Shown in pieces: positions 9,616 through 37,463 of a stretch of DNA of 64,000 bases; within the stretch, counting starts at the first letter, position 1; every line of letters starts with the position of its first letter. Source of the DNA: Mytilus trossulus. Its lineage: Eukaryota. The position numbers were made by a program, and so were the translations under genes. The notes beneath the pieces were generated by a model. It was given only the letters and a program-made list of their open reading frames with translations, did no database searches and was not told where the DNA came from. The stretch is taken from positions 23,211,216 to 23,275,215 of the forward strand of contig NC_086385.1 of the NCBI RefSeq assembly GCF_036588685.1, given 5' to 3'.

Positions 9616-10391
9616 TTATTCCCACATATGCCCCATATATTGGATTCCAACAGGATTAGGATAAAGTTCTCTAACAAGTTCCAAAACACACTCCGGCATA
9701 ATTTCCCGCTGGTGCATTACAACCCATTCCCCACCACCAAGTCTTTTCTTTTTATCCAAATACTGTGGAAGTAACCATCCATACATATTGTTCACACATT
9801 TCCAAAATCTTCTGTATATCCCTTTTCGTATCTGGGGGTTTGCATTTGAGGGTGGTTGGCCATTTCCTACCCATGGAGCCGTAATATATGAGGTAGCAAC
9901 ACATGGGGTGATGAAACAATAAGGACATTGTCCTTCTCGTAATGCAATGTCCTCATGACCTGAATCTGGATCTCCACTGTCACCATTGTCATCTCTGTCA
10001 CCACTTTCATCCTGAATATTTCCTTGGCTTGAAGAAGTGCTTCCTTTCTCATCCTTTTTAGACCTTTTTCTCTTTATACATTTCTTTTCTAAAATAAAAT
10101 TGCAGTCATAAATAATAGAATATATATAAATATTAAGATAAGCATTCTTCACATTTAAATTTGTCATATTATTATTATAATGTTATAAGTTAACATAATT
10201 AGATTTAAAAGATAAATTAATATTCACATTTACAGAATAATGCTTTATTGAAATATCTATAAAGTAAATGAATAAAAAAAAAAATACTTACCAACAATAC
10301 ATGATGTCATATTTTGCTCTTTCAAAAATATCATCAATTTATCCCTTTCCTCTTCATTTACTTTCAAAACCATTTCACATCTTTTTTCCAT
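9616..10391 (-). CDS. KolX-like accessory protein of a Kolobok transposon (P2X7 cytoplasmic-ballast-like), 2 exons, about 190 aa, intact
   Basis: Exons 10391-10292 (MEKRCEMV...CIV, GTAAGT donor, phase 1) and 10088-9616 splice in frame. The C-terminus CPYC..PC...IRKGIYRRFW...GW...REIMPECVLELVRELYPNPVGIQYMGH matches the ballast/KolX pattern (R...YR...R..LP.CV...IR..YP.P.G.Y.G). Confidence 0.75.
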
Positions 10392-10642: not shown

Positions 10643-11768
10643 ATGGCTAGCAATATGAATATACTAAGTAATATTACAAATGTGGAGTATTTTAATAGAA
10701 AGAGACCTTCAAATGGAGAAGTGAAACCTAGAAAATCCATTGACTACAATTTTGACAATGACTCACAAAAGTTGGCATTTGATGAAAAATATGAAGGCCT
10801 AAAGAGGAAAATGGAAGTAAAATCTAATGTGGACATTTTGAACATTTTGATGGACTTTTACAATCAGAACTGTTCAACTCCAAAGCTTGAAGAAATACCA
10901 AATCCAAATGATAATAGTGAACAGGATGACCAAGACCTTTTTGTTTGCTCTAAACAGAAACTATTTGAACTTGTACGCCTAACACAGTGGTATGGTCCTC
11001 TTGAACCGGCCGAAATGACAAAAATTGGACATGTTGCAAGACTAGTTGTTAAACCAGTGAAAACAACATCTTTTCCGATTTTCTGGCATTCCTTATCCGC
11101 ACTGAAGCAGGACTTTACAGTGAATTACAAGTTGATACATTCTTATCTCTGTGCTGGGATGTTTCCTGCTCAATACGAACGGTTTAGTAGCTTTGCTAAC
11201 ATTGGACTTTCACAGAAACGATTTCGGGAAAAAATGTTTCCAACATTCAAACAGGTGGTAATATCGCTTCGGGACAAGAGCATTAATGATGCGTTAAAAG
11301 AGGAAAAAGAGAAAAACTCTTATAGTGATAATAAACTTGATATAATGACAGATGCAAGACATGCATGTAGAAAGAACAGTTATCATACTGATGTAACAGC
11401 TCTGGGGAACTTGACTCACAAAGTAGTAGGTTATAGTCACGTTACAAAGAACCAGGAAAGGAGTTCCCAGAAACATGAAACCTTTGGTACAGAAAAGCTT
11501 TACGAAGATTTCGAAAGAAAGAGGATTAAAGTGAAGTTCATTCGCATGATAGAAATGCATCTGTCAGTAAATATCTGAGCCAAAACCAACCAGATGTAAT
11601 TGATTCCTATGATACTTAGCATGGTGCAAAGGAGGTGCGGAGGAATATGGCAAAAATTACAGAGGGGACAAGGAAAAACATCGGAAAGACATGGCATCCT
11701 GAACTTAGAGACAAATCTGCCGGTGTTAAAACCCATGTTTACTGAGCAAAAGAATTGCAATGGTAATG
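10643..11768 (+). pseudogene. Kolobok-type DDE transposase, 5' part (interrupted by AcademH)
   Basis: ATG at 10643; motifs IMTDARH (first D), then after a frameshift near 11535 HDRN (second D) and YDT*H (DxWH with W to stop). A second W-to-stop and a frameshift near 11745-11750 follow. It ends KNCNGN at the TSD. Confidence 0.8.
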
Positions 11769-11846
11769 CAATCTCCGGCGCAGAGATCACATATCCGTTC
11801 CGTTCAATACTACGTAACACTACACTCAATATGACCTCTGCCATAC
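11769..11846 (+). repeat. AcademH left terminal inverted repeat
   Basis: The first 21 bp are the perfect reverse complement of 31621-31641; the match continues imperfectly to about 75 bp. Confidence 0.95.
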
Positions 11847-12155
11847 CTTTTTTTGCGTACTTTTTCTTCTCAATCTCTAAACAAAAATGAAATGCCTATG
11901 ATGACTTTTTTTATCAAAATTTAGCAATCAATCTTCAATTTTAAAAGAATAACAAAAGTTTTAATGAAATTTAATTAAAAAATTTATATTTATCAAATAA
12001 AAGCTGATTGTCGCACTTCTGTTATAGATTGTATTTCCTGTCAAATTATGTAAACAAAGTAGTCTGCAAAGGGATTATTTTTATTTCTGTAGCGATGTTT
12101 TTTATACATATTTCACTTTTTTTATGGATTTCTTCTTCAATTTAGATAATTTGAT

Positions 12156-15100
12156 ATGTCTTGCAATGCTTGTTATACCACAAATTCGTGGAGATTTCAT
12201 TCGTTGAAATCTGACCTTTTTTCTTTTTTCGACAAATTTACAAAGAATTTTGTATCAGTTTACATTCCAACTACCAAAAAACAAACATTGTGTAACTCCT
12301 GCTATTGTACGTTAAAGAAGTTGAAAGAGTGGAGTGAGAACATATACAGGTAACTCAAGTGCTTGAATTGTCTACATAATGAACATTTCCGTATACATGT
12401 ACACTAGTTATATTATACATAAATGTCTTTCATGAATTTGTAATCCATGACCATGTCTTATTAAATAATAATGATCTGGACCTCTGAAGTTAAAAGAAGT
12501 CTAATGAATAGCCCACAAAATTATTTTTTAATTTTTATCTAAAAAGCAAAATAAAAGGTGTAAAAAATATATATATAGTGCATGCAGTGGACCATGTTTG
12601 ACCAAGGAACTAGCCACTAAAGACTGTTATTTATCAGTAGCTATGCTATCTCTATTTAATATTGAACACAACATAGCTTGAGATAATTATTAATTATTCT
12701 TCAACTTGGTGTAACTGATATTCTTATAATCACATTCTTCGTAACATTGCAATTTTGCATGTTTGACAAACAGAACTTCTGATTTTCCTGACCAAAATTG
12801 AGTGGAGGTTTAAGTAAATTATATAGGTTAGCGATTTAGGCATTCCTAGCTATTTAAACAAGAACACAATTTTTTTTAAAGATTTAATTGTTTCTTCAAT
12901 TCTCTATGAAAAGATTGTGTAACTTATTGATGTTAATTTCTCCTTCCAGTTAAAATTGAAAGATACAAAAAATATTTATCATATGAATTACATGTACTTT
13001 ATCTGTTGATTTTCTTGTAGAACTGAGAGAATTAATACATTTAGTGATCATGCTGTGTTTCAGGAACAACATGTCAATCAATTGGTTACTGAAACAGGGT
13101 ATGTGTAGATAGTTGATGAATACGCATGAAATGTGGGGAAGGGTTCATGTCAACAATTCAGCTACCACTACACAAAAAAAAGACTTGAAAATACTAAAAT
13201 AAATATTATGAATATTAACAAACATTTATTGCACTTTTTGTACTTTTGACCTTTGTTTGATATTAGATAATTGGTCTCCATTGCCAATGATACACTAAGT
13301 GACATGATTGAAATCTTTTTGATTATTTAGCTGCTATTTAATATAAGACATAAATAAGACCTTTATTGATCTCAGTAGAATATTAAAGATAATATTATGT
13401 TGGGTAGCACTCAATGTAACAATATACAGTTGGACTATATAATTATTCAATTGTGAATATTGGTATATACTTATGTGCTTTCATCATGTTCATGTCATAT
13501 ACATTGCATAGTTCTAATTCTGATTTTAGAATTTCACCTGATCCACAGATAATTGATTGTTTAAGGAATGGTCACTTTGGTTCCATTGAGTAAGTAACTT
13601 ACCTTTATTATATATGTATACTGTGTGATTCATTAAATGCTAATTATTCATTTTATAAACATAGTACAGGTATAAGAGATTTTTTATTTAAATATTTCAA
13701 AATTTTAAAAGTTAAAACATTATAGGATATTTATTTAATTAAACCTTTTTGAATAATGAATGCACCTTTGCATTTTTTGTCATGTTTATTTCTAAGGCAT
13801 ATATATAGTGAAAGCTGTATAATGTATATATAATTACATATGCTATGGTTAAGATGGCTCTACTTACAAAATTCTACTTCGGCCAAATGAAAAAGTATGT
13901 GTGGTTCCAGTTACATCTGAAAAAAAGTTAGGGTAGGTAGTTAGGGATTTTTTTTTAATTTTATGGTTGTTTTTTTACATTGAGTCTATGGCATGTATGT
14001 GAGCAACATTCTGACTTTAATAGTGCTTAAAGAAAAATGACAATAAAATCTTTAGGGTAGGCTATTTTCAAGCCAAAAAAGTAGGGACGGTAGGGTTTCT
14101 GGAACCACACATATATTTTTATTTGGCCTTATAACAGGCTATAGTTTAAACTTGGAATAATTTTTAATAATGGCATTTGCATAATACAATGTGCATTTGA
14201 TTAATTTAGCTGTACAAATATATGTATCTAGTCAAGTGCTTGAAAATTTTGATAAATTCCATATTTATTTTGTACTATGATGTAAGAGAGTATTTTTCAA
14301 TAGAATGTACTGTGCCGCTCACAACAATATCTATACAAAATACAATGTATTAGAAGGGTTATGGACTGCTCAAAACAAATAAACAGAGAATTTATTCAAA
14401 AAGTAATACAATTATATTTGTTAGAAGTCTAGAACCTGGTCTATCACATACAGTTGGTCCAGCAGGGGATGCTGGCAGTATAGACAAATCAGAGTAAGTA
14501 ATTATCTGTAGGAACTTTAGAATAAGTGATGTCAACATATTTCATATTATATTAAAAGAAGATGTGGTATTATTGCCAATATGACATGTATGAGACAACT
14601 TTCCACAAGAGACAGATTGACACAAAAGAAATCACAGCTATACATGTAGGTCACTGTCAAGTCTTTAACAATGAGAAAAACTGTTATGGCATAGTCAGCT
14701 AAAAAAAGACAAAGTAATCACAAATGTAAACAATTCAATTGACAAAACTTATGGCCTAATCAAAGTGCAAAAAATAGATGAAAAACAATTATGGAGCACA
14801 GCAACAAACAGCCTCATTTAAATTACAGGATCTTGGCTTGGGACAGGAAAATTCAAACAGAATGTGGTTGGGTTGAAAATGTAACCAGGGACAGAGGTGT
14901 TACAGTACACAGTACATCATGAACATGACAAAAAAATATGGTCTACATGTCAATGAGATAGCTTCCGCCAATTAAAAAAATCATTTAGAAGCAATAGATC
15001 CATATCCTGTGACATACATAAATAACAAAGCTATTGAAACACCATTGTATATATGAATATGAACATGAATATAATATTATAGTTGATTGTTTAAAATGTA

Positions 15101-18100
15101 GTCTGAAAAGCAACCAACTTGCAAAAAAGTCCCAGGCACAAAGAATAATTGTAGGAAAAATGGAATTTTTATCATTTATGGGAATCTGAAGAAAAAAAAT
15201 ATCACCTATCATTTTGTACTTTTTTACATAATGTGAAATTACAATGAATTATGAGTATGCACATGTGGTTACATTCATATCAACAGTTTTATATAACTTT
15301 TTTCAGTATAAATGACACAGTTATTCCAGAGGAGGATTGCATACTATCATCAGGAGTAAAAAGATCTTTTACAGAGTATATATCATCTATATGTTTAGAT
15401 CACACTACAGCTCAGGTTGATTTTGCTTTGTCCACTCTTCCACAGTGTGAATTGGCACTGGGTGGGCAAATTCCAGCTTGTCCAGTCTGCCCACCAATAG
15501 GAGTGGGCATGTAATTTCTATTGATTAATCAAAAGACAATTTTTGCAAGTACAATCAATTGAAAAAAGCAGATAAGCATTTGTAAATAAGGAATATTAAA
15601 CAGTACTGTTATTAAAGAGTTGTCACCGTTAATTGTAGATTTGACGGTCACAAATGCAGTTTTATTGGCGACCGATATTTGCTGCCGTCAAATCAAAATT
15701 GATATTGGCAACTCTTCAACTACAGTACTGTTATTCTGGTTCTAATACATTTAAAAAATAAGATATGTAACAAGTTGAAAAAATGTATAAATTTGACATA
15801 CACAAAAAGTCAGCGAAACTTCATGAATATTTATGACCTATAAATGTCATTGATAAACGTGACGTCAAAGACTGTACATAATTTAAACTAGATCATTCAT
15901 GAGTTTGAATAAAGTTTATGCTTTCATAACTTTTAAATGCTTAGTATCTTGAAAATTTGATATGCAATAGTACTTCTATTTTTCAACATATATATCCTCA
16001 ACTCTCATACAAAATCTTGAAGACTTAAGTCAATGTCTATGAAATATCTTTTACTACCATTAAATGTTTATTTTTACAGTGACCATTCATATATCAACCA
16101 CAAAGGGCACAATACAAGTGATTCAAATGACCATGAATATTCCTGTAACTTGCACACAGAGGAGGATGAAGAAGATGATGAAGACGTCAATATTTTATGT
16201 CAGGATAGAATAAAACAAATATTAAAACTACTCAATTTAAAGAGTAATGCTGCATATGACTACCCAAGCATGTTAAGGACTTGTAGTCAGACAGATCTTA
16301 GCGAAAAAGACATCTTCATGAGCATTATTGAAGAAATGAAAACACGGTATTATTAACATCACTTCTAAAAATGATTTTTGATATGAAATATGGAGATTTT
16401 GCATGATTTTCAATGAAACTACTATATTGGTAGAGATAATTTGACTAAGATACAAACTACCTTCAACAATGAGCATAATCTTTACCTTTTAGCAAATGAA
16501 ATAAAATTTTTTATTAAAATACCAACAGTCTAATACATACATGACATACAACATCAATGATTCAAAATCACATGTGGCAGAAAAACAAAACAAATTTCAA
16601 TTGATTTATTCAGACAGATAGTTATAGAATTTTTAACATAAATATCTGCAAGAATAAATACTTCTTTGTAAGACATTATGCATTTAAACGTTATTTTCTT
16701 AAATAATGATTTCAAAAATTATTGTTCTTTTATCATGTTTGTCTCTGAATATTGAGGATGAAGATTGAATCATTATCTTTCTAGACCTGAAATCTATTTT
16801 GTGTACATACATTACCATTTAGAATACTACTTATTCAAATATTGAAATTCTTTGAACTTATATTTATTAATACATTTGTACTTAAATATTTAATATGAAT
16901 TCACTTGTATATTTGAATACCAATAGATGTCCACAACTGCTTGAAATACTGTTATCAGTATGTGTGAAGGATACGACAAAAGTTAATTTAAGGCAAATTA
17001 ACAGTGTTGCTGTTGCATATTCATCTCTAATGTTTGCTAGAAACAACAAAAACTCTGGTATACAAAGATGTATTACCCTGTTAGCTGTTAAAGGAGATGC
17101 AAATGATGAGGTACGAAAAAATCATGGTAATGTAATACAATATAGTTTGTATAAATGTCATATAACATACATTTTCTTCAGCAGGAGACCCAGTGATGAT
17201 TATTTAATGATAGGGGCTGATGTTATTGATGGAGTTTGGTTATTAAAGGTGGCACTTTGAAAATACAGCTGTTTCTCAAACCACACTTCTTTTGGGGAGA
17301 TCTAAAATATTCATAAAAAAATAATTGTGTTTACATACTGGTTCCCAGTTCTGATCTGTATGTTGCATCTAACAGAGACATATCTTGGGAATGTTACCAG
17401 TAAATATACATGTGCATATTGTTTATATTGAAATCTGTGGTAACCCTTCATTTGAGATACGGGGTAGCTAAGAAAATAAGTTTTACTTTAAAATCTGAGA
17501 AGTTCAAGGCATATAAACGTTGAAAATATGCCGCATACCGCTGTATTTCGACCTTTGAGATTAATTGAAGTGCATATGAACTTTAAATTCTTCGATAAGA
17601 TTTTTTTCAAAACTTCATAGTAAAAGTGTTACAGTTTTAGCCGCAAAAGGAGTTCCAACGGAAAATGCATTCTCAATATTTACAAAAATGCAACCTAAAT
17701 CTCAGTAAATTGAACAGCTTATGACTGGAATTGTACTCTATACCTAGATATTCTTAGATTTTATGATTTTTTACTGTTATGCCACTTGTTTTGCTCCCTC
17801 AATGCTAATTCATCTGTAACTATTACTGCTTATTGCCTAATCTTTCCCTTTTTGCTGTGTCTCAAAATATAAAATCTGTTTCTATATTCTATCACTAATG
17901 AAAGCAATGAATACAAATAGATTTTATGTTTTCCTTTAGGGCTGTTCCAAAAATAAATGTATGAGGGCACTTTTTATTTGACCCCACAATGCATGAATTT
18001 TTATTTGAAAATTTCCTTTAAATGGTAAAGTTATTAAACACTACCCATCAAATTGTATTTAAAGTGCCTTATGACCCCCATACAATTAATTCTGGAACAA

Positions 18101-21100
18101 CCCTTATTGTATACTGTAAATTCAGACATTGAACTGACTTATCCCATGAAAAAACAAATATGTGTCTAATTAGATTAATTATTGGAATTTCTATACAAGT
18201 TGATAATTATAGATATATGTACAGGATATAAGAAAACTAGTTATTTTTCTTTGATATATGGTTACCAAGTTGCATAAATCATAATCATTTCTGAATTTAC
18301 AGTATACTTTTGCTTCCCATTTAGGTTACAGCTTTACTTTCCTTTCACATTAACAAAATACATTATATGAAAGTCTGTATAAAATGGTAAATACACCTGC
18401 TGTATGTTGGTTCGAATCCAACTGCAGACAAAGCAATGTATCTTAGTATAGCTAGCTATTAACACTTAAACTGTGAAATCATTCTTATAAGCATTTTGGT
18501 ACTTTGGTAATATGAAAAATGTTATTCAATATAACATTTTCAAAATTCTTTTCCTATGATTCCATTTTAAAAAAAATGAATTCAATGAAAAATTACCTTT
18601 TATTATAAATTTACAATATTTCTGATTATCTGATTTTCAACTATTACTAATAAGGACAAATACATTTATTATTGATAAGAATGACTTCACAGTGCTTACT
18701 GCTATTTTTGGTGAAGGTGCATTATTAACTAGTTACAAATACATTAGTAATAATTGATAATGACAGCACTATTTCATACATGTTTTATTTTTAATTCTAT
18801 TTCATAGTTTATCAGAAGATTGAACAGGATGTCGTTAAGCCTTTCCTGTTCTGGAAAATTAAGAATTCTTGATAAGGCTGTACTTGCGTCACATAATATG
18901 CTGGTTGAAGCAATTCGTACAAACCCTTTAATGAAAATTACTGGGGATAACTTGGATATGTATATCAGAACAAACCACCAAAGGACAGACAATAGCAACC
19001 AGGATATACACTGGTTTGCCTCTAATGCATTTTTCACCAGACTTAATTACCAAAATCTTCCTGAAAACACACCAGAAGTTAGTCCAGTTTCTGTTGCTAA
19101 TTTTGTTAGCATGGTTCACTTGTTCTTAAATTAAGAATTTCTTTTTGAATTTGTTGAAAGCTGGAAGTATTATTTCTCATGGATTGTTATCTGATTATTG
19201 CTTTACATAGGCAGTAACTGTTTTAGTTTCCTTATCCAGCAATTAATTTAAAAAAAGAAAAATTCTATCCAAATCAATAATTATTTTTTTATGTAATCAT
19301 GACTTAAATTTAATCGGATACTGTGCTTTACAATATTATTCCTTTATTATAATCTATTGATTGATTAACAATTTACAAACAGTTAAGAAATGTAATTTTT
19401 TTATTCATACAAATTATCAGTCTGGAAATTAGGAAAATTAGTGTAATTGTAAGGTAGCATGCATTTATATATGTTTTACATTTTTTTACAACTTTAACTC
19501 ATAATTATTATTTTACACAACATGTTATTGAAGCCATTTTTGATGAGTTCTGTTTTTCACACTGATGTTTTCTTACAGGTGACATGTTCCAATTAGTGTT
19601 TGAGTCTTGTGATCATTATGTTCTTTTTTCTATTTAATGGGTTATCATATTTAAAAATTTGATTATTAAATTGTACTATTAAAGTGCAATTGAAAATATA
19701 TTTCAAGATTATAGTATATGGTGTAGGTGTAGTCCAGTTGATCTTGTCAATTTCAAGATGATTTTTTTACATTTTGGCTGTTCATGAATTATGGTACTAG
19801 ATGATTGGAAAATTGAATTCATTTGAAATTTTTATATTTTTCTTTCCCAGACTACCTTCAAACATTGTGCAAGTATAAATATCAATAAACTATGACTTTT
19901 TTTATAGGTTAGACTGAAAGACATAGATGCAGAAATGTTTGTATTAACTGGAGGGGAAACAATGAAGCTGAATGATGTAAAGAAGGTTTTGATAGGTCGT
20001 CTTCTATGTGACAGGGATGACTTTCAGTGGCTTAAAAATAAACTACCACAACATATACCACATCGGTACAACTTTAAATCTTAATATATGGGAAAAAAAA
20101 TTACAACTGTCCTCAATGGAATGGGTCTGAGTAGTACAAATGTGATTTCATTTTATGTTGTGAATTTATTTTGAACATATTTTTACATATTTTTCAGCAA
20201 ATCAAATGACTTTTGTTGTCCAGATAAATTTGGGATATAAATAAAATAAAATAAAGGATATGGTTAACTGACTTTACAGTATAAACTTTGCTCATGGTTG
20301 AAGGCTGACAGTGACCTTCATCTGAATATCTGTGTCAATTCATCTTTGGTGGACAGTTATCTCATTGGCCATCATCATACCACTTCTTCTTCAATTTTAT
20401 AAAAATAAGTTGCGACATATATAAAAACGAGAATCAAGTGATGAGAACTTATTTTGATCAGATTGCATCTTCTTTCATATAATGACACAAAACTGGTGTA
20501 TAACAAAACACAAAATGCAGTAGAATAAGGTTTTAATTGCTATTCTTCATTTCAAAATTAGTGATGACTTCAACATGAAGCAAATACTATCACCTAACTA
20601 CATCTATAATATCATATGGCTCCTAGCACTAGTTTGATTGGCTTTTATAAACATATTACATAAAAGAATTAAAGAAGTAACAGAAATATCATATCAATAT
20701 AGTACCTTATATTATATCGTAATACATGTATTTCATTTGGCATTTTTTAATTTTAAGATACAGTGACAGCATGTCAAAGAAACAGCATGTCTATACATTG
20801 AAAATAATGTTCAAGAATGAATCTAAAAATGAAGACTGTCTGGATATAATGGGCGAATACGAAGATCAAATAATTGATTTGCACACAAAGGCATATGGTA
20901 ATAAAGGCATTACAATGAAACCTGGCTAAACCAAATCCTACCTAAAACCGAAGACCTGTATAAACCAAAATTGTTCTGAAGCACGGTCATATCAAATTGT
21001 ATGCTTTCTTAATTCCTGTGGAGGTTCCTTTTTAAATAGGTTTCATTGTAGTATACCTTGCACACTGTTTATTACAGTTTTTCATATCTGATTTGGATTT

Positions 21101-24100
21101 CAGTATCCTTTCTATTATCATTTGCACTTTCACTTTCTTTCTTATATAAAAAAAAATGTTGCATTTGTTCATGATAGCCATCAAAATTCAATTGAAATTT
21201 AAAATGTTTTAATATTTTTAATATTCCTATTACAGGAAATACAGACAATTTAGATAAATATGGAGTAGTTTTAGGAGGAGATATGTTGACCAGGGAAAGA
21301 TTACAAAATGCTAAAAACATCACATATTTAGCTCCAACACCAAGGGGTAGATTTGAACATTTAGCCCCAGTCACTTGTGAACTTTGGCATGTGAAGCAAG
21401 ATCTTCTATCTGTATGTTTTATTGTATTCATACCTAGTCCCTTAAGCAATTTTGATATCACCAAGCATTCTGAGTGCAAGGACCATAACTCTCAACAAAT
21501 TTGTAACTTTATCTGTTACTTGTCATCATAAATCAAGATACCAAATTTCAAATCAATATCTTCAAGCTGTAAGAAAAATTGTGGAAAAACTTATTTGACC
21601 AAATGCAAAACTAAAGTCCATTTAAACTTTATGCTCATTTTGTTTCTTAAATTATGCACTGTACTGGCATCAATTTTCAAGTCTATTTTTTTTTATTTCA
21701 CCTAAGCGCATACCTAATATTGTATTAAAAGGATTTTAAAAAACAGAATTGAAGTTATTTTAACATTGTCTTTATGTCAATTTTTTAGAAAGCATATAAA
21801 GCCTTATATAAAATTGATTCATTGGGAGAGTGTGGAACTTTGTTTCACATGAAGACAGCATTAAGGAGGAATGATGTGAATGGAAATGTAAAGTCCAACT
21901 ACAAAGCCCATGAGGAACTATTTCTGCTGATTGTGAAAGCATTAATTCACGTAGCCTCAGATGAGATAAGGGATTGCAAAGAACAGAACAGAGACGTTGT
22001 CCTTAGTAATGTTTTTTCAAAAATTTATGGTTTGTATAAAATAATGATTTCCATATAATTATTTCATTGGTACGATAGCAAAACATGCAAAAGTTATTAG
22101 CATAAAGGGACAACCCGTGGTAAAATCTAGATATATTCAAGCCCCCATGAATTATTTCGATTCTAATAGGACAAATACGGCTACTTTTTTGGATCGAAGC
22201 GCCCTAGGTGGAGGCCATTATTTGCCGTTCCCATAAATTCACGCACTTTTAGATTGGCGTAAAAGAACGGAGCAAACAGAATAAGTGACATGCTCAAACT
22301 ATTCACAAAACTTATAAAGATAGATTTCGATGAATTTTAATGATAACTTACTTAAATATGCCTTCTATGTATAAAAAAAATGGGCTTATACCACATTTTT
22401 GCATCGTTTGTTTACGTTTCCTTGTTGTGATGATTTTCGGTATCAAAAGCGTGTATTTTCCCGTAAAATGCTTAAATTATAACGTCATCATTCTATGACG
22501 TCGGGTACTTCATTCATTAAAAAAACATATGACGTGGGAGTACGATCGGAACAGCCAATGCAATATATTCATATTTTACCACGGGTATGTACTCAAAGCG
22601 TTTGAAGGACGTCATGTTAGAATACTTTACATTTATGTTCATGGAATGTAAAGATTTCAAATTCTACCTGGTAAGAATTCTACTGACTGTGACAGAACCA
22701 TGAAATCAAGTATTACACATTCTCGGAAAATTGATTCCCAAGAAAAAAAGTTGAGTCTACACTATTTAGAATAACAAATTTAAAAATAAAAAACTGGAGG
22801 CTTTCCTATATAGATATAGGAAGATGTGGTGTGAGTGCCAATGAGACAACTCTCCATCCAAATAACAATTTAAAAAGTAAACCATTATAGGTTAAAGTAC
22901 GGCCTTCAACACGGAGCCTTGGCTCACACCGAACAAAAAGCTAAAAAGGGCCCCAAAATTACTAGTGTAAAACCATTCAAACGGGAAAACCAACGGTCTA
23001 ATCTATATAAACAAAATGAGAAACGAGAAACACGTATATATTACATAAACAAACAACAACTACTGTACATCAGATTCCTGACTTAGGACAGGTGCAAAAT
23101 GTACACCTAATGACCAAGCTAAATAAATTGTAGGAATGACCTGGCAGATATACATAATATATGAAAACCTATTGGTTACCTTCTGCTGTTGTCTGTTCTA
23201 TGGTAGGGTTGATGTCTCTTTTACACATTCCCAATTTTCATTCTCAATTTTATATGAAGAAGATGAATGGTTACAATTTATAAAACTGTTTGTGGATGCA
23301 AATGAATATAAACAGTTATTTTTTAGGTCTAGGATACAGCACAGATGATTACATTTACAACTACTTCACAAATTTAATAACCTGGGGTATTCAAATAATT
23401 AACATGAATGACACAGCAAAGGAAGGGGACATGGAGAGACTTATAATGAATATGAAGGAAAATGCAGCCTTTTTTTTACAGCCACTCAGTAATGAGCAAA
23501 TATTTTTCTGAGTGCGTTAACACCATCTTACAAGTACAGCACCTATCATCCCCTCATATGAAAATGAGACAGCTAGAAGGGGCATTCATTAATACCAAAG
23601 GAGGTTCTGGTAAAAACAAAGAAGCAGACCTGGTGCAGGAGCATGCCATTAGAAATCAGAAGGACTTAATAAGAGGTTTAGGTAAGAAACATAGACTTAG
23701 CCTCCAATCACCCAAGTATTGTTACTGTAATTGTACTTCTGTATAAAAGTTTCCTGTTGGAATTATCTCCCTTATACCATTGACCTAACTTAAAAAAGGA
23801 GTTGCTTCATATTCTTAATTAATTTATTATTTTTAAACAGTTTCAAATTTAATATCTAAATATATGGGATCCATATTGTCTTAATGATTGAATTTGTATA
23901 TAACTATTTGTAACAACACACAATCAGGATAAATTTGTAAGGTGGGGTGATGTGAACCTGATAATTTTTCGCTACATTGAAGACCTGTTGGTGACCTTCT
24001 GCTGTTGTTTTTTTATTTGGTTGGGTTGTTGTCATTCCCCATTTCCATTCTCAATTTTATCATATTATACAATTGCACACTATGAATCTAATATTGCTTA

Positions 24101-24592
24101 CGGCCAATTAAATCTATTAAAAAGGGCTAATATATTACTTTCATTACTGTACTAAACAGTAAGATATTGGGAGTAATACATTCAGACAAAAGCTTGAACA
24201 GTTTCATAATATAAAGAAAACATCAGTCACATCTGTATTACTTATTGATCTTAAAGTTGAATATAATTTTTATTAATGTAGGAGCAAATAAAACTGAAAA
24301 TGGTTCCAGGAGAGCTAGCAGCTCAGCAGACATCATCCATCGAATAGGAGACAATGTAGACCATCTTCTTGGTATACCTAAATTCACATCAAGCCATGCC
24401 AAGAAAACGTCATCTAAAGATCTGGAAATTGCTATAAACATTTTAAGTAAAGTTCAGCCATTTAAATATGTTAAGGGTAGGAAATTTGAAAGTTTTAAAA
24501 CAATACAAAAAAATCCAAAACTAATTGTTCAAAGGAAAGATCTAATACATGCCATCCATAAAAAAATTCAGAGGTTATTTTTAAATTCATAA
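12156..24592 (+). CDS. Academ (DUF6589-like) DDE transposase, 14 exons, about 907 aa; one +1 frameshift in a T8 run
   Basis: Phase-consistent GT-AG exons: 12156-12349, 13021-13098, 13512-13589, 14425-14493, 15307-15510, 16080-16346, 16927-17110, 18808-19077, 19908-20065, 20758-20897, 21236-21411, 21789-22029, 23327-23681, 24282-24592. Motifs: N-terminal CxxC..CxxC, ITGDNLD, GGDMLTRER, ELWH, KEGD, SKY, NTKGGSGKNKEADLVQEH, LGANKT. One extra T at 23470-23477. Exons 2-5 are less certain. Confidence 0.82.
13881..14128. mobile_element. MITE in transposase intron 3
   Basis: Imperfect TIRs of about 28 bp: GGCCAAATGAAAAAGTATGTGTGGTTCC and GGAACCACACATATATTTTTATTTGGCC. Confidence 0.7.
17936..18106. 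mobile_element. MITE in transposase intron 7
   Basis: Imperfect TIRs of about 30 bp: TAGGGCTGTTCCAAAAATAAATGTATGAGGG and CCCCCATACAATTAATTCTGGAACAACCCTTA. Confidence 0.65.
18373..18430 (+). ncRNA. tRNA-like structure, copy 1 (58 nt), transposase intron 7
   Basis: Acceptor-like stem GTCTGTA/TGCAGAC, a stemless D-like loop containing TGGTA, a 5-bp arm ATACA/TGTAT with a 5-nt loop, and a T-arm GTTGG-TTCGAAT-CCAAC. Confidence 0.6.
22807..23100. repeat. Abundant SINE-like interspersed repeat
   Basis: ATAGATATAGGAAGATGTGGTGTGAGTGCCAATGAGACAACTCTCC...ACTAGTGTAAAACCATTCAAACGGGAAAA is nearly identical to 34271-34453. Related copies lie near 14555, 42335 and 55790. Confidence 0.75.
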
Positions 24593-24959
24593 TTTTTTCT
24601 ATAGTGTGTTTATAGTTTCATAGAAAATCAGGTGCCTATATCTACTGAACTTTGTGTTTCTATTAAAAAAAAAATTAGAATAACTTATTTACTGAATGTC
24701 AATAGCATATAAGTCATAACCATTAATTTTTCAATGCATGTAAATTTCTCTCCACTAATATTGAAAATGAAATGAAGGTAAAAGCAATTTTCAGTTAATT
24801 TTACTTACACATTACAATAATTTAATGTTATTTTTGAAACTAGATATATGCCGAAACAGTGGTCTAAAATACCAATAAACATTATGTAAATGTTACTGAT
24901 GATTATACTGGTGCTATTTTTACCTTAAAATCAATCATTACTATAAAATATTGGGGATT

Positions 24960-25830
24960 GAAGAAACAACTTCATTGTTGTTTTATAGATTTTAAAAGTG
25001 TTTTTGACAACTTGAATACATTTTTTTTATATCATAAACTTGCTAAATGTGGTATTAGTGTAAGTTTTTTTCCATTATTAAATCTTTCTATGATATTTCA
25101 ATGACCTGTGGGAAATTTAAAGGTGAATTTTCTAATATATTTTCTGTAGAAAAAAGAGTATTACAAGGGGAATCATTATCAACCATACTATTTTTTTTTT
25201 TTTTATGATTTTGAATATTAGTTTATTTTATAGCTTATTTCTGTTTTACCAGTAGACACGAAATAGCTGTCATTGTTTATATTGATGTTTGTTATATTTT
25301 CTGAGAGTATTGATGGGTTGTAAAATATGTTGAGTATTCATAATGTATCAGATAGAAAAATAAAAAAAAATCAGTTAGAATTTTGTAAATATATTTATAC
25401 TATTAAGAAATCCCCTGCTACAGCAATGGTTTATTCTGAGTTGGAAAGATTTCCTTTACTTATATGTTAATCAGTAAAAATATCCAAATATTGGATTTGT
25501 CTATTACGAGTCTGAATCAGGAAATATGTCATCATGGGTTACTAATGTTAAACCTATGTTGCTTAGCCAAGGTTTTGGGCATGTATGGTATGCACAGAAT
25601 TTTGAATGCGAAGAAGCATTTTTTATTCAAACTAAGGTTTATTGACCAAAAGGGAAATATGCTTTTCGATTCATCATCAAAATGAACGATCTATAAATAT
25701 GAAGTGGATAACTGTTTAACTGACATTTTTTTCACAAATAAGTTAAGTCCACAATGTATCAGATTTTTAACTAAATATAGTCATTTCCTAAGGGGAGGTA
25801 AATTAGTTCCCAATGTTTTGTATCAATTAG
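24960..25830 (+). pseudogene. Highly degraded LINE (RT) remnant between the AcademH genes
   Basis: 25156-25192 reads RVLQGESLSTILF (RT motif QGxxLSPxLF); a later segment reads AMVYSELERFPL. Many stops and deletions. Boundaries are approximate. Confidence 0.5.
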
Positions 25831-27420
25831 AATTGACATTCTAAAAAAGTTGAGTGTAAATTCTTCTTCAATAGATCAGGAATGGCTAATATCTGCATTG
25901 TTAATAAAATTATAGTGAGCTATGTTTATAATTTATTATTATTATTTAATGTGTCTCTCCATGTCCCTTTCTTGTGTAATTTTAATCTGTACGGTGTGAA
26001 CCATATTCTTTCATTGAGGCCTTTTTTGTAAAAGAAATACCTAATTTTGATCCCTGCATGTAATATAGTTCAAAAATATATAAAATTGTTATTTCCTATA
26101 AATCTACCTACAGTTTATTATTTTAATGCTATTATGTGTTTATGCATTTGTTGTTCAAGATTCATTGATTGTAATAACAAATGAAATTTTAAAATTTATT
26201 CAAATGTTGGTCTGCTATATTTATCAGTCTATTATTATTCTATTATTTACACTTTGAGAAAAGCGCAAAAAGAATTGGAAGGCAAGAAGATGAAAAAAAA
26301 GATGAATTGATAGAAAAAGATTTTTTTTAGAAAAAAAATATGTAATATATATATTTAAATATTTTAACAGTGACTTACGTTGAATCGCATTTACACTAAA
26401 AAAAATATTGTGATTGCCTTCATTTAATGGTTTAAAGCAACTACATCTCATATAAAAAAAATTGGAATGGAAAAATACATCCTTGATAATTGTTATATGT
26501 TAATATATAATTCTTTCAGTGAAAGAAAAGATTTACATTGACTGTGATATTTTTATTCATTATTGATTATGAAATAAACTGTGATATAAACTGTGATATT
26601 GACTTGTAATGTATGTTTAATGAACAAAAAAAGAAATCCTCCCAGAATATTTTTAGTCATCAAATCTGGGTTTCTTTTTATTTGTAATTATATGAATTAT
26701 ATAAGTGAAAATTTTTGATTAAATCAAATGTATAGTCTTAAAAATTAATTTGAATGACTTCTTCTGAAAAGGGATCATATTAGAAGTTGAAATGAAGGTA
26801 TAAGTATGTTATTACAAGTTGAAGCAAACTGTAATCTTTTTTTTAATCAGAAGTTTTGAGAAACATTAGTTTGTGCCAAGGATTATTAAATTGATTTTTG
26901 CTATGATTTATTGTTCATTACTATTTTTAAAATGATGCATGAAATTATTTCTTTGGGTGCAGATGAACTGTTATGAAAACCTTTTTTAGGGTAGCAAAAG
27001 GGTTTTAAGATTAAAATTACTTAAACTAGAACAATAAAGTAATATTAATGTATTGAAATGAAAACCAAAATGTTATCATTGGATTTTTATTTCACTCAAA
27101 CTAGTATGTCTTGTATACATAAATAGATTATTTATAAGCTATTAAACCTGTGCACTGAATGGTTAAAGCATAACTATCTCCAAGAAATGAACTTTTATCA
27201 TTATTTATTTGATATTTAAAAAAAAAAAAAATTTGAAATCAATTGTAGGTTTTGAATACATTGTCTCCTAATATTATGATTAAATGCTGTACTTATATGC
27301 TTTTTGTATTACTTGAAAATAGAATAAAATTTGTATATGAAAAACGATTTTTTATTTCTATTCCAAAGTTTTGAAATTAGGATTGGGATGGGGGTTGAAG
27401 TTTGAAGGGTTATTGCCTAT

Positions 27421-30400
27421 TTACAATTCCATTCTCAACATCTCACATTCAATACAGGAACATATTGGTTTACAGTTGTTACAGCAGATATGACCCTTTA
27501 CATCTGTTTTTTCAAAGCCATACTGCTGTAGTAGGTATTCTCGAATGCAACCCTTTTCCCTACAAAAACCAATAATATCAGGCTTGATATCAACTACATT
27601 AGCAGCAATATCCCTATTGCTGTAATAAAGAACAGCATTGGCTGCATTCCCTGAACGACCAGCACGCCCAATCTCTTGGACATAATCTGACAGTGATCTT
27701 GGTGGACGTGCATGGATGACTCTCATAATTGATTGAGAATTAAACCCCATACCCACAACTGAGGTGCAAAACACAAGTTTTATCCTTGGGTTTACACAAG
27801 CCAACTCTTTAATTATATAATTTTTTACACTGTCATCCTGACCACTGCAGAGAACACCGTATACAGATGTTTCAAGGGTAGGTTTCTTGAATATATGTTT
27901 GCAGTAGGCAGCTGCATTGCCTATATACTGTAATGGCATAAATAACAAAGTAACTGGAAAAGTTTCCCTATTTTCAAACAAACTGTCACAAAGTGGCCTA
28001 TATATATTTTCATAGGACTCATAAATATCTAGGGATGCCTCTTTAAGTTTGATTTCCAGTAAAATGTTTTCCCTATCAGGACTTTCCTTAATAACTTTTG
28101 GATTTTTTATCCCTAAAGAACTAGTAACCGCCTTCTCTTCTTGTTTCGTGACAGTGGCACTAAGTCCCAATCTGGGTACTCCTGGAAAAAATCCTGGAAG
28201 CTCTTTCAGGTGTTCAAAAGCTTTCCTGAAGGATCTCCCCCTATTCATAAAAAAAGAAGTAATGATCATGCATTTTGATAATAACCATTTAATAAATAAA
28301 GTTAAATACACCACCACCAAATAAAAGGGATATAAGCAATATGAAATCATTTTTCCCAATAAAACTCTGATTTTATTAAATATGGTGTTAAAATTTGTGT
28401 TCTGTATTTGTTACAATTTTTGTTATCTACATGAAATAAATTTGAAAGAAAACCAATGAATCTAATAATCCAAGAATGAATAATATGATATTATTCATTC
28501 TTGGATTATTATTAATATCTATTATATTTCAAAAACAATACAGGTCACAGATAATTGGAAAAAATGCATTCACAGTGGAATGTTAATAGCTGAAATAATA
28601 TACATTGTTTGTCCGCAGTTGGAATTGAACCAACATACAGCAAAGTGTATTACCCTATAGATACAGACTTCTTTATAATGTATGTTGTTAGTAAGGGTGA
28701 GATAAAATGTAAATAAAAAATTAAGATAAAAGCATTAATTACTAAATGTTAACAAAAAGCTTTAAAAAACCACATTAAAAGCTTATACTAGCTGCATTAT
28801 AGAAGTTGACAGTGGATGAAAACAGGAAATTTAACCAGAAGCTAAAACATGTAAAATGCAGATATGCACTGAAAATAAATTAATAAAAAATAGGTCACCC
28901 AAGATCAATTTTACTTATTGTTAAGTTAAAAAAATGTCTTGCTACATGTTGCAGATAAATTCCATTAGGCCAACTGTAAGGAGTTTTGCTAGAAGTAATA
29001 AATATACAAAAAACATATACATTACTGGTAAGTCTTAACATTAGAAATGGAAATACATACCTTGCTTTCTCTTTTATACTTACATTATCTGTTTAAAACA
29101 TTTCAAACAGTATCAGTAAAATCTGATTCATGTCAAAATGTGAACTTTAAATCAATGGTAATATAAAAAAACAAAAACAACAAAATATTATTGAGGTTAT
29201 ATAAGTAATATTGATTTTTAAAATTGAAAAAAAAAAATGCCAGATCTTGAGAACAAGTTACAAATTTGATAAGAAAGGTGATAAGCCAGACTTTACTTTC
29301 AAAGAAATGACCAATGCTTGATAAAATATATAAACTATGTTAATCATTGACCAATATACAGGGTAACACACAACCAGGACAAAAGCTTAAAGAATTACGT
29401 TTAAATTGTTTTATAAAGTGTAATAGATGTCCATTAATGTCACCTAAAAAGTATGGAATGTTACCAGTATTTATTTATATATTCAATACATTTTGCTATT
29501 GTCCAGCAGAAAAAAGTTGTCAAACTGAATCTGAAATTAAAATACAACTAGAGCTGAAACGTACCAATCTGCAACTTTATGACATTCGTCAATAAAAATT
29601 GCCTTCACTGAAGATTTGAAACTACAAGAAATATAAAGTAAGAAAAACATGGAATTTTACTATTGACTGTTTTGGCCACTTGAATGTATTTTAAATGCAC
29701 ACATAACGTTGTTCTAAATTCATATTAAGATCAAAATTCTCAGTTCCATTATCATTATTTGTTGGCAAAATTTAACACGAATTTTCTGTAAATGGTTTTC
29801 AGAAAAAAAATGTGAAAAACTAAACTCTAAGGGATTGCTTAATTTTAACCAGACTGCAAAACCAACATTCCATTTTTATAGCATTATTGCTTTAAAGAAC
29901 AATTTAACATGGGAAAGAAGTGATGCATAAGTCAAAAATCTTTTTTTTTTAATTTCTTGATTATTTTTTCTATATATAATTAATACATGCATATAAATAG
30001 TTTAATACCTAGAGGAATCCAAGATATCATTTCCTTCTGAAGTACAGAAGAAGGCTTCTGGATGAGCAAATATTAAGTTACAATTGGATATATCTGAAGT
30101 ATCTATATCACACTTAAGATCTTGGATATTTTCCTCATTCCCTGCAGTCAACAGTCTTCCCTGTGGAATAAAGGAGCACAGTTAAACTATGTAAAACTAC
30201 CTACCAAGAATTATTAGATACTGAAACAGAAGAAATTAAATACATGTGTAGCCATCAATCAAGAATCATGATTTATGAATCTAGATTTTATCAAATTCAT
30301 GCCCCATTCAATGAATCAGAAACTACTTCTTGACGAAACCAAATACTTTTGAACATATGATACATGTACATGTAACTACAAGATTTAGAACAACCTTATA

Positions 30401-31485
30401 TATATATATGCATGTATATGTATAACCTGCAGTTGACAACTTGAAATATTAAGTACAGTATTTGAGTAAAAAAAAAAATTAACAGGTGAGCCATGCATAA
30501 GCATGTAACTGGTACCAGATTAACATGAATATCTCAAAGTCTTCAAATATCAGTTAACTTTAATTTGGTATGTTAGTAAAACTGTTTCGTCCCGGCCAAG
30601 GGTACTCATCAGGTGCCTTAAGGCTACCACTACAGTCATCTGTTACATATACATTTTTTTTAACTAATTATAAGAACAAATGGTATTAGTTAGTGATCAT
30701 CTCTTTGCACTCATATTCTGAAATATTTCACTTAAGAGATCTTTTAGACCTTAAAAAAAATATTTGAGGTGTTCATAAGGGTCTGTGGAGTTCAAAAAGT
30801 GGGGTGTTATAGACGTTTCTTTTCTGTTATCTGTAGATATTTGGACTCTTAGTCTTCTAATTTGTTGAATTAATAATTGGAATATTATAAATAAGTACCA
30901 ATTTAAACGATAAAAGTCAAAATAATAAACTTTTTTGGTGTTCGGTGGTGTGCGGTGGTGAAAAGACCTACCGGTTTATTTTGGCACCTTCTGCAGGAAA
31001 GAAAAAACTGGAAAGCAAAATCTAGTAAAGTTTTTAAAATTTCTGAAACGTTTACTTTAAAATAACTTTTATATATCTGCCATGCCTTAAAACTTTCCTA
31101 GATGTACCAGTTTCTCTACTCAAATAGTAAATTTTTAGGGGTAAACACGGCCATATTTTTAAATTCCTTATGATGAACCTGAAGAATAAGAGTAGATTTT
31201 TACCCTGGTATTTAATATACAACATTTCAGTGCTTCTGAGTTCTTCAACTGTTTTACTTGCTCTTCTTGGATGACACTGAGAGGTGAAAAAACAATCACA
31301 GTGCCGTCCAAGATTAGCGGAGCCAGTTGGTATATGAGGCTCTTTCCATAACCAGTTGGCAAAATCGCTACTGTTTCAAGTGTTCCTTTTCTGATTTCGT
31401 CCAACACTTCAATTTGTTTAGGTTTCAGTAGTATGTTAGGATGACCAAGTCCAAGACGTCTAAGCGGGATTTCGTAATCCGCCAT
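27421..31485 (-). CDS. RecQ-like SF2 helicase of AcademH, 4 exons, 436 aa, intact
   Basis: Exons 31485-31204, 30160-30009, 29621-29565 and 28240-27421 splice in frame (1311 nt). Motifs: LPTGYGKS, SPLSVI, AHPE, FIDECH, WGRSFR, LSAT, CTSVVGMG, YVQEIGRAGR, and a C-terminal CIR...CCNNC Zn-binding segment. Confidence 0.92.
28463..28511. repeat. Perfect 24-bp inverted repeat with 1-nt spacer
   Basis: TAATAATCCAAGAATGAATAATAT-G-ATATTATTCATTCTTGGATTATTA. Confidence 0.95.
28610..28668 (-). ncRNA. tRNA-like structure, copy 2 (59 nt), helicase intron 3
   Basis: The minus strand reads GTCTGTA TCTATAGGGTA ATACA CTTTGC TGTAT GTTGG TTCAATT CCAAC TGCGGAC A. The stems match copy 1; differences fall in loops or give a G-U pair. 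Confidence 0.6.
30581..30636 (-). ncRNA. Type III hammerhead ribozyme in helicase intron 1
   Basis: The minus strand reads ACTGT-A GTGGTAGCCTTAAGGCAC CTGATGA GTACCC-TTGGCC-GGGAC GAA-ACAGT. It has a complete CUGANGA/GAAA core, a GUA cleavage triplet, closed stems I and II, and an open stem III (ACUGU/ACAGU). Confidence 0.8.
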
Positions 31486-31566
31486 TTTTTACAAATAGCC
31501 CTTTCACCGCCTTAGATACTTCCGCTTGTCCGCCATGAGGAAATTTCCTCATGGAGTCAGCCAATC

Positions 31567-31641
31567 GTATGGCAGAGGTCATATTAAGTGTAGTATTGCG
31601 GAGCACGTAAGGAACGGATATGATCTCTGCGCCGGAGATTG
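31567..31641 (-). repeat. AcademH right terminal inverted repeat
   Basis: Reverse complement of the left TIR, followed directly by the TSD ATGGTAATG. Confidence 0.95.
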
Positions 31642-32222
31642 ATGGTAATGCTGCTCAACTAGTGCTCTTGCTTGACTCCATTGTGGACCATTACAAACAA
31701 GACCATAGAAACTGTCATCAAACATCTAGATACAAAAAAAATGACTATGTGCCGTCGCGAGATATTATTCGGGATCCAACAGCCGAGTTGTTGCTAAGGA
31801 ACAGTATAAAAAACCTTTATATTTATAAGCATCCAGAAAAGTATACTCATTGTCGTGACACTCATTATATTGAGAGTTATCATAATACAATTCTCATACA
31901 TGTGGATAAAAGGTTACATTATCATAATTTAATGTATGAAATTAAGTTGGGACTATCAATACTTGATTGGAATGAACATGTTGATAGACCTGCTTCATCA
32001 GTACAACACCGTGTGCAACATGACCATCCACGTCGACAATCTGGATATCGGGTTTTGACACCAAAACAATATACTTTTACAGATGAATTATGGAATAACT
32101 TTGTAAATCTGTTAAATCATGACCGCAATGACCAAATTGAGCCCGATGATGTTGAAAATGTTCAAATAGACCAAAATGATACAATTGGTAGTGAATATGA
32201 AGATTCAGATGATGATGAGTAA
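31642..32222 (+). pseudogene. Kolobok-type DDE transposase, 3' part
   Basis: Continues the 5' part in frame once AcademH is removed: GNAAQLVLLLDSIVDHY..DH..CH...RDTHYIESYH (catalytic E)...DKRLHY...LSILDWNEHVDR, ending in an acidic tail. Confidence 0.8.
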
Positions 32223-37024: not shown

Positions 37025-37463
37025 TATATATATATTGGGTTGATGTTTAGACGAGTTGTATATATATTATTACACAGCCATGTATCACCATCATGGCGAT
37101 CCGATGGATACATCTGTTGTAGAGTTGTCACTGACTCCGACGTACTTATAAATATAATTATTTTCTGTGACTGTATATTACATTAATTTGTAGGATCCTT
37201 TACTATAGATAATTTAGCTGATCTGTAACAATAACATCTTCATGCCTTATATATCATGTACTGTAGTACGCCGCTAGATTAAAACTGACGAGGAAAGGTA
37301 ACACACGGCCAGCGGAAGCTCTTTTTTTTAGTCTAAATATTTGCACATCGGTACTGATATAAGATGTTATAATACGAAAATGTTGTTATCAAATCGTGTT
37401 GACAAATATTTCGGCTCAACAAATGGCCTTCTTCAAGTGTCACAAGTTTTAACAATACTGATA
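36889..37463. repeat. About 136-bp inverted repeat (Penelope pLTR-like end duplicated in inverted orientation)
   Basis: 36889-37024 is the near-perfect reverse complement of 37328-37463, with a spacer of about 300 bp. It includes a hammerhead-like variant CTTGAAGA-AGGC...GCC-GAAA. Confidence 0.85.

Follow-up and report, generated by a model that had tools for sequence, protein, structure and literature searches.

The locus described here raises the question of what has split a transposase gene of Mytilus trossulus into two parts, and whether the intervening DNA is itself a mobile element, a pair of host genes or a member of the same superfamily as the gene it interrupts. The window analyzed, i.e., the whole stretch of 64,000 nucleotides, was examined for its ends, its genes and their relatives, and the features are collected in Table 1.

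Ends and target site of the element

The transposon extends over positions 11769-31641 (19,873 bp), is full-length and is bounded by TIRs that align with 67 of 75 columns identical and 3 gaps, the first 19 nt being perfect and the termini reading 5'-CA...TG-3'. On both sides it is flanked by the same 9-bp TSD, ATGGTAATG, and an exact 9-mer match at the TIR-defined ends would arise by chance at about 1e-5, as computed from the window composition. The end alignment and the identity of the 9-mers bear out the TIRs and the exact TSD that an earlier note on this DNA had claimed; the TSD was seen for one insertion only, i.e., for this copy. A C follows both 9-mers, which would allow a 10-bp reading, yet this base pairs with the G that closes the right TIR and therefore 9 bp was preferred. 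The perfect palindrome located between the helicase start and the right TIR is a possible candidate cis element. Rfam searches returned 0 matches.

The interrupted gene shows the Kolobok DDE motifs with the xxH signature and a zinc finger: judged by eye against the published alignment, the motif series TDARH (first Asp), HDRN, WH, H/C finger and ES[YF][HN] is the same as in Kolobok_1_MyEd and Kolobok_16_CGi (PMC9587614 supplement 3), from which the host differs in being a pseudogene here, and this agrees with the Kolobok-type assignment made previously. Moreover, the host homolog P0094 passes PF20700 with 35.3 bits (cut-off 26.5). If the element is removed together with one TSD, ...KNCNGN runs directly into AAQLV..., and the resulting junction was covered by one continuous tblastn match in 8/8 host-gene homologs tested; uninterrupted relatives of the host gene, which the earlier note had suggested looking for, were found in this way and align across the insertion site. 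The frame restoration claimed for such a removal holds locally, but the host transposase does not become open, because it keeps two stops (11617 and 11743) and still shifts frame twice, near 11536 and near 11749. Around the window copy no convincing pair of Kolobok TIRs or TTAA TSD was detected, and TTAA-flanked inverted repeats with AC...GT ends were present in 2 of 36 related loci. In 20 of 36 metagenome loci (E <= 3e-7) the small partner gene has a homolog next to the transposase, and neither Pfam, PDB nor Atlas provided a name for it. Kolobok0 (Kol0) possesses an accessory protein, KolX, which is P2X7 ballast-like. The host element resembles Kol0 in having a small partner gene, which is at most a candidate for a KolX-like one.

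Table 1. Positions of the element, its two genes and the interrupted host gene in the window.
Feature	Positions	Strand	Basis or remark
Small conserved partner gene of host Kolobok element	9616..10044	-	start not mapped
Kolobok-type transposase pseudogene, 5' part	10643..11768	+	motifs match published Kolobok rows by eye
Left TSD, 9 bp	11760..11768	.	same as 31642-31650
Left TIR, ~78 bp, imperfect, 5'-CA start	11769..11846	+	aligned to right TIR
DUF6589 gene of 14 exons, putative Academ-type DDE transposase	12156..24592	+	gene model, Pfam PF20231
Transposase exons 1-7	12156-12349, 13021-13098, 13530-13589, 14425-14493, 15307-15375, 16080-16346, 16927-17110	+	
Transposase exons 8-14	18808-19077, 19908-20065, 20758-20897, 21236-21411, 21789-22029, 23327-23681, 24282-24592	+	
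T8 run, +1 frameshift in exon 13	23470..23477	+	transposase model
Spacer between convergent 3' ends	24593..27420	.	X15 contigs span 24279 to 27244, strand undefined
RecQ-like SF2 helicase gene, 4 exons, 436 aa, frame open	27421..31485	-	gene model
Helicase exons	31485-31204, 30160-30009, 29621-29565, 28240-27421	-	
22-bp perfect palindrome	31533..31554	.	between helicase start and right TIR
Right TIR, 75 bp, TG-3' end	31567..31641	-	aligned to left TIR
Right TSD, 9 bp	31642..31650	.	same as 11760-11768
Kolobok-type transposase, 3' part (ESYH motif)	31651..32222	+	open to its stop

Two convergent genes: putative transposase and RecQ-like helicase

Two convergent genes lie inside the element, a transposase gene of 14 exons on the plus strand and a helicase gene of 4 exons on the minus strand. 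In the predicted models 16/16 introns, of which 13 belong to the transposase and 3 to the helicase, are GT-AG with compatible phases, in accordance with the number given in the earlier note. The spacer between the genes possibly represents one or more long 3' UTRs, the run X15 that covers it being only guessed to be RNA.

If the frameshift is read through, the transposase product comprises 856 aa, and it is 98.5% identical, without gaps, to XP_076081561 over 542 aa. Exons 3-14 are supported by homologs; for exons 1 and 2, where no homolog support was found, the model is based on the open frame and the splice phase, and the exon-1 variants listed (2/2) are synonymous. One contig of X15, a probable RNA run only, joins exons 12-14 and shows that these are spliced in a related copy. 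The protein was compared by eye with the RNase_H_Academ HMM of PMC5751038 as far as that profile was available, i.e., over regions other than those of the second Asp and the Glu: HMM states 3-6 (D-N-x-D) correspond to D354-N-L-D357 and state 223 (H) corresponds to H548. From the motifs we infer D354 (or D357), D512 and E740 as candidate catalytic residues, together with the conserved H548, and the motifs are retained in 6/6 long relatives checked. Taken together, the sequence comparison supports a reading of the Pfam family DUF6589 as an Academ-type transposase. In a full-text search, DUF6589 came up in one paper. The AlphaFold model of the transposase reached a pLDDT of 32 with a 13-row, Mytilus-only alignment, and the transposase profile gave only one chance-level match to PDB sequences (E 0.73).

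The transposase frame is not intact as assembled because of the +1 frameshift in the T8 run: the frameshifted product would end near residue 700, short of E740. The description of the element as complete applies to its structure, but not to its coding capacity as assembled. The relatives P0086, P0254 and P0256 read through the frameshift site and P0087 ends in the other shifted frame. Over exon 13, one X15 contig and one X4 contig lack a single base relative to the window, the site of the gap being undefined. The frameshift, which the earlier note had missed, is either a mutation or an assembly error.

The helicase carries Walker A, DECH, SAT and motif VI sequences as well as a C-terminal Cys cluster, matches the Pfam families DEAD and Helicase_C and has recQ_fam as its best NCBIfam match, scoring below the cut-off of that family; all 4 exons are supported by homologs. 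The fold of P0278, a 436-aa relative with 55% identity, was predicted with a pLDDT of 92, and among the best-fitting structures this model matched the cores of WRN, RecQ, BLM and RECQL5 with TM scores of 0.57-0.74 at 20-23% identity. The helicase is a predicted minimal RecQ core consisting of two RecA domains and a zinc-binding region. The core fold would be common to the element and to cellular RecQs (WRN, BLM, RECQL5 and bacterial RecQ), which differ from the element helicase in that the latter has only 436 aa and gave no match to an RQC winged helix, HRDC or exonuclease in the domain search. In a quick tree containing 17 chosen cellular RecQs, and no rows labelled AcademH, BLM, RECQL1 or RECQL5, the helicase and 30 relatives were split from the cellular proteins (SH-aLRT 100); the grouping with host RecQ genes that the earlier note had named as counter-evidence was not seen among these 17. 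The depth on helicase exons was near zero in both RNA-type runs examined; in the raw RNA run X21, of which about 6% was read, most bins outside host repeats were below 1x in depth, and the rows listed contained no splice joints.

Relatives of the element and further copies

The AcademH lineage of the Academ superfamily was reportedly described by Kojima in 2020. Within it, the sublineage AcademHP is distinguished by a PHD finger in the transposase. The element described here differs from AcademHP, as a PHD finger had no match in exon 1, P0254 or P0256. With AcademH it shares a transposase together with a RecQ-like helicase, TIRs, a 9-bp TSD, an animal host and the lack of a detected XPG nuclease, as far as the lineage is described in the accessible portions of PMC10045372 and PMC10799480; a nuclease had no match in the relatives P0254 and P0256. 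The available text of PMC10045372 gives TSDs of 9-10 bp for AcademH, as the earlier note had stated, and of 3-4 bp for AcademX. The DNxD...H signature that the published Academ HMM gives for the transposase is common to AcademX and the element (by eye, for the part of the profile at hand), but AcademX has a nuclease and a 3-4-bp TSD, whereas the element here has a separate helicase and 9 bp (PMC10045372, same portion). The RecQ-like helicase, the 9-bp TSD and the DNxD...H signature uphold the previous AcademH identification. Academ transposons are abundant in bivalves, and according to the accessible part of a survey their consensus sequences have a mean length of 5,565 bp (n = 100 curated), as compared to 19.9 kb and 16 introns here, a contrast that refers to bivalve Academ overall and not to animal AcademH families; the part searched of the supplementary files contained no match (PMC10294476).

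Helicases of the RecQ type are likewise encoded by the DNA transposons KolobokH and Kolobok-1_CCri, the latter on the opposite strand, as in the element here (PMC9587614). This similarity, and the fact that Academ membership was checked by eye alone, would speak for a helicase-carrying, KolobokH-like Kolobok or another non-Academ superfamily. However, Kolobok elements have a 4-bp TTAA TSD and RR...YY ends (PMC9587614), both absent here, as the element has CA...TG ends and a 9-bp TSD; the transposases are unrelated by profile comparison (DUF6589 versus the host Kolobok profile, probability 0.1, E 0.42, with a shallow query profile); and KolobokH is reported from fungi only. We consider this assignment very improbable. 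Judged from its sequence, the element is most likely a new member of the AcademH lineage, and it probably represents a new AcademH family.

Transposase and helicase genes are paired at four other loci in three species, as judged from consecutive accessions and contigs of the same length (VDI79976/7 with VDI79978, XP_063436657 with 658, XP_063435698 with 699 and CAG2194114 with 115), and the two M. trossulus pairs sit on different chromosome-size contigs of 88.1 and 96.3 Mb. In M. galloprovincialis, near-identical transposase pieces (94-97%, tblastn) were present on three contigs of different length, which within one heterozygous assembly can be alleles. Annotated Mytilus relatives are up to 98.5% identical, and contigs of run X4, which has another organism code than X1, are about 97-99% identical over much of the element. 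The summed contig depth at position 31566 was 790 in X1 and 195 in X4, single interior contigs having about 12-35, and same-strand joints from 11825 to 31579 were present in both DNA runs (X1 and X4). These observations therefore suggest that short TIR-bearing derivatives of the element exist, contig depth not being equal to copy number. Among the joint rows listed for the read contigs there was no empty-site joint for this insertion. The TIR 21-mer pattern had 0 matches in metagenome contigs, and no transposase relative was confirmed among 163 viral and 180 prokaryotic candidate stretches.

The recurrence of the pair bears on the view that both genes are host genes, namely a paralog of RecQ together with an unknown gene, or a remnant that has been domesticated, the end repeats being incidental. 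The gene-like structure with 16 introns and a spliced transcript, the divergence between organisms of about 1-3% and the names given in databases, e.g., 'ATP-dependent DNA helicase RecQ' or 'WRN-like', are in line with this view. Contrarily, the block breaks the frame of another gene and has an exact TSD at its borders, the gene pair is found again on different chromosomes and the helicase lies outside the sampled cellular RecQs, which makes a host origin highly unlikely in our opinion.

Proposed mechanism and implications

Taken all together, we are largely confident that the locus contains a full-length element of the AcademH lineage, which likely entered a Kolobok-type gene of the Mytilus genome by DDE-driven cut-and-paste. 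We propose that each gene would be driven by a promoter near its own end of the element (the ATGs lie 387 bp and 156 bp in from the respective terminus) and that the DUF6589 protein would bind the TIRs, possibly via its N-terminal Cys cluster, excise the element and join it to a target whose strands are nicked at a distance of 9 bp; the TSD would then arise when the host repairs the gaps. The helicase would act in 3'-5' direction as an accessory factor. Its role might be to unwind gapped or flapped strand-transfer junctions and so to resolve the long 9-bp duplications, where AcademX uses an XPG nuclease, a proposal we make tentatively and rate slightly below an even chance; a second guess, to which we give clearly less credence, is that it favors repair of the donor gap by copy-back.

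Replicative spread of the same element, in which the transposase nicks one TIR strand and the helicase displaces or copies it without excision, appears improbable. Rolling-circle elements carry their own helicase, as does the element here, and neither an excision footprint nor an empty donor occurred among the joint rows listed. However, a missing empty site among listed rows is weak evidence, two-ended strand transfer is what TIRs, an exact 9-bp TSD and DDE-like motifs normally indicate, and Pfam detected no HUH/Rep domain in the ORFs or relatives scanned. With regard to the favored cut-and-paste reading, this copy can, as predicted from its open frame, still supply the helicase, while its supply of transposase depends on the extra T being an assembly error. 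With the helicase intact and near-identical intact transposase relatives publicly annotated, transposition could readily be assayed with both genes or with the transposase alone.

The longest stop-to-stop frame across any transposase exon is 125 aa, and no exon is as long as 300 codons. The bivalve survey required ORFs of more than 300 aa, according to its accessible part, so elements of this kind would likely go unnoticed (PMC10294476). A joint reading, which we regard as rather doubtful, would be that a giant, gene-like AcademH of bivalves is still active and largely unannotated, being overlooked by TE pipelines that rely on ORFs, as all transposase exons fall short of 300 codons, and being filed as host RecQ, WRN or DUF6589 genes; that its presence/absence blocks of about 20 kb explain RECQL/WRN-like helicases in hemizygous mollusc DNA; and that the four lesions within 230 bp of the insertion are scars of error-prone, helicase-linked repair. 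In the portion available, Calcino et al. (bioRxiv 10.1101/2020.09.15.298695) report that RECQL/WRN-like helicases occur in hemizygous regions of molluscs and that the dispensable genes of mussels include helicase-like domains, and elements such as the one described here offer a possible explanation for their remark on hemizygous-region helicases. AcademH-type elements may account for some of the 'RecQ/WRN-like' genes in bivalve annotations. Furthermore, the element supplies exact ends, a TSD and models of both genes for a lineage that, in the accessible portions of PMC10045372 and PMC10799480, is little studied and mechanistically untested.

Ends of the element and the interrupted host gene

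The terminal inverted repeats (TIRs) start with 5'-CA and finish with TG-3', and left and right TIR were identical in 67 of 78 aligned columns, the remainder being 8 mismatches and 3 gaps, with bases 1-19 perfect. They are flanked by an exact 9-bp target-site duplication (TSD), for which the probability of a chance match at the element ends was about 1e-5 given the window composition. No further TIR copies were detected elsewhere in the 64-kb window.

After deletion of the element and one TSD, the eight longer homologs of 10643-11575 examined each matched continuously across the junction, which independently confirmed the insertion point. The earlier note had claimed that this deletion restores the Kolobok frame: the homologs indeed align through the junction, but the gene is still dead, since it retains two stops (11617, 11743) and two frame changes (near 11536 and 11749). 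All four lesions (11536-11750) sit to the left of the insertion and no more than about 230 bp from it, while the frame is open for about 297 codons ahead of them and 190 beyond; the uniform chance of such clustering is about 7e-4 for an interval picked after the fact. The host transposase motifs agreed by eye with Kolobok_1_MyEd and Kolobok_16_CGi in the PMC9587614 supplement. Pairing with a small gene is as expected of a two-gene Kolobok, the accessory protein KolX being a candidate identity only, and Pfam, PDB and ESM Atlas yielded no name for this partner. The ends of the host Kolobok were not found around the window copy. Two Kolobok-like metagenome loci (L034:412-4412 and L036:257-6232) carry TTAA-flanked inverted repeats ending in AC...GT instead of RR...YY.

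Coordinates of features in the window
Feature	Position	Strand	Remarks
Open frame	49-816	-	255 codons; no significant Pfam match
Small host partner gene	9616-10044	opposite to host transposase	homologs adjoin transposase in 20/36 related loci
Left TSD, ATGGTAATG	11760-11768		directly outside left TIR; exact copy at 31642-31650
Element	11769-31641		19,873 bp
Transposase gene	12156-24592	+	14 exons
Repeats nested in transposase introns	13881-14128, 15599-15732, 18109-18307, 22084-23096		MITE-like or other very high-copy
Inverted pair	18351-18486 (transposase intron), 28559-28689 (helicase intron)		137 bp, 78% identical
Helicase gene	31485-27421	-	4 exons
Palindrome	31533-31554		perfect, 22 bp, between right TIR and helicase ATG
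Right TSD, ATGGTAATG	31642-31650		directly outside right TIR
Penelope-like frame	35499-36653		384 aa; reverse transcriptase and GIY-YIG matches
MITE-like element	36889-37463		inverted arms 136 bp, 98%
Exact duplication	51475-53135, 61527-63182		10,052 bp apart, ~499-bp tandem units; may reflect a recent duplication, collapse of an element or faulty assembly

Transposase and helicase genes

Both genes were located via homologs of single exons and splice sites were then placed by hand; in these models every one of the 16 introns has GT-AG borders and the phases are compatible, bearing out the number given in the earlier note. The genes are convergent, each starting near its own element terminus, and coding sequence accounts for 3,883 of the 19,873 bp, with very high-copy host repeats inside several introns. 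No annotated homolog was found for transposase exons 1-2, which are predicted from open frame and phase; both exon 1 variants among the 40 of 739 variant rows listed were synonymous. Position 14494, where the intron 4 donor begins, is changed in a related copy from DNA run X1, which would likely be unable to splice there.

The plus-strand product matches Pfam DUF6589, comprises 856 aa if a single frameshift is read through, and showed 98.5% gap-free identity over 542 aa to a Mytilus galloprovincialis RefSeq protein, which makes Mytilus the most likely origin of the window. Its ESM Atlas neighbours were DUF6589 clusters of molluscs, cnidarians and basidiomycetes, at a recognition under the tool threshold. 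The RNase_H_Academ HMM, in the available part of the PMC5751038 supplement, opens with D-N-x-D, which is strongly conserved, and its state 223 is likewise a conserved His; by-eye, unscored comparison identified D354-N-L-D357 and H548 in the window transposase, with D512 and E740 as candidates, and these motifs were retained in 6/6 long relatives examined. Neither structure prediction nor PDB sequence search gave a supported fold.

The T8 run in exon 13 (23470-23477) shifts the frame towards a predicted stop near residue 700, upstream of E740. The frame is continuous through this run in the annotated relatives P0086, P0254 and P0256, and the M. edulis model P0087 finishes in the other shifted frame, not in that of the window. 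Exon 13 was 1 base shorter than the window in one contig each of X15 (a run guessed to be RNA) and X4 (DNA), where the gap could lie anywhere in the exon. Since the homopolymer has three lengths across assemblies, sequencing error or slippage is indicated, and either may account for the T8 run of the window.

The helicase frame is open over 436 aa and contains Walker A, DECH, SAT, motif VI and a C-terminal Cys cluster, with annotated relatives of equal length in P0278 (436 aa, 55% identity) and P0268 (69%). The top NCBIfam family, recQ_fam, scored under its cut-off, and a Pfam scan gave no match to RQC or HRDC domains. A model of P0278 reached pLDDT 92 (83-row alignment), the closest structures being the cores of WRN, bacterial RecQ, BLM and RECQL5. 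In a quick 48-row tree of the window protein, all 30 non-cellular relatives with at least 330 residues covered and 17 of 84 cellular RecQs chosen by hand, with no labelled AcademH, BLM, RECQL1 or RECQL5 among the rows, a branch supported at SH-aLRT 100 set the cellular RecQs apart from the rest. The proteins do not group with the sampled host RecQs; such a grouping had been named in the earlier note as speaking against its reading.

Relatives, mobility and expression

At four loci in three species, relatives of the transposase and of the helicase have consecutive accession numbers on contigs of equal length, and two of these loci belong to different chromosomes of M. trossulus; the sister group at these paired loci showed about 70-77% protein identity. 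Transposase pieces 94-97% identical to the window are annotated on three different-length M. galloprovincialis contigs, among which there may be alleles.

Sequencing-run comparison used 4 of the 24 runs listed. Contigs of X1 were identical to the window across several kb; this run, which also contains diverged versions of the element's 5' part, may be the window's own source and is therefore not independent evidence. Contigs of X4, which bears a different organism code, were about 1-3% diverged over much of the element. Read depth, which gives no copy number, was far higher at the right TIR edge than in the element interior, and same-strand joints from left to right TIR were present in both DNA runs; together these observations suggest short non-autonomous relatives. 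No empty-site joint occurred among the joints listed (873 further joints are in the data), the TIR had 0 matches in metagenome contigs, and no TSD of a second copy was obtained from the runs or metagenome contigs searched. Transposase exons 12, 13 and 14 were contiguous in one 1,825-nt X15 contig, spanning two predicted introns, and helicase exons had near-zero depth in X15 and the RNA-type run X21.

Classification and proposed transposition mode

The element is real, well delimited and most likely of AcademH type, a further member of a known lineage. A literature search by title and abstract start returned no description of a Mytilus AcademH; Repbase, Dfam or the supplements of the AcademH-defining paper may contain one.

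From the element anatomy and general knowledge of DDE enzymes, cut-and-paste would be the most likely mode: the transposase would act at both TIRs and transfer the strands to target positions staggered by 9 bp, the host would repair the gaps, and the helicase would most likely serve as an accessory 3'-5' motor. PMC10045372 relates the length of the TSD to which accessory enzyme is encoded (9-10 bp with a helicase, 3-4 bp with a nuclease), which favours a helicase role at integration junctions. We therefore tentatively prefer, at somewhat less than an even chance, that the helicase helps to resolve these junctions; copy-back at the donor gap appears rather unlikely, and replicative spread is likewise less favoured than junction resolution.

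The value of the element lies in its exact ends and intron-rich gene models. It offers a likely function for DUF6589, as a putative Academ-type transposase, and a possible explanation, open to testing, for the RecQ-like genes that lie in presence/absence regions of bivalve genomes.
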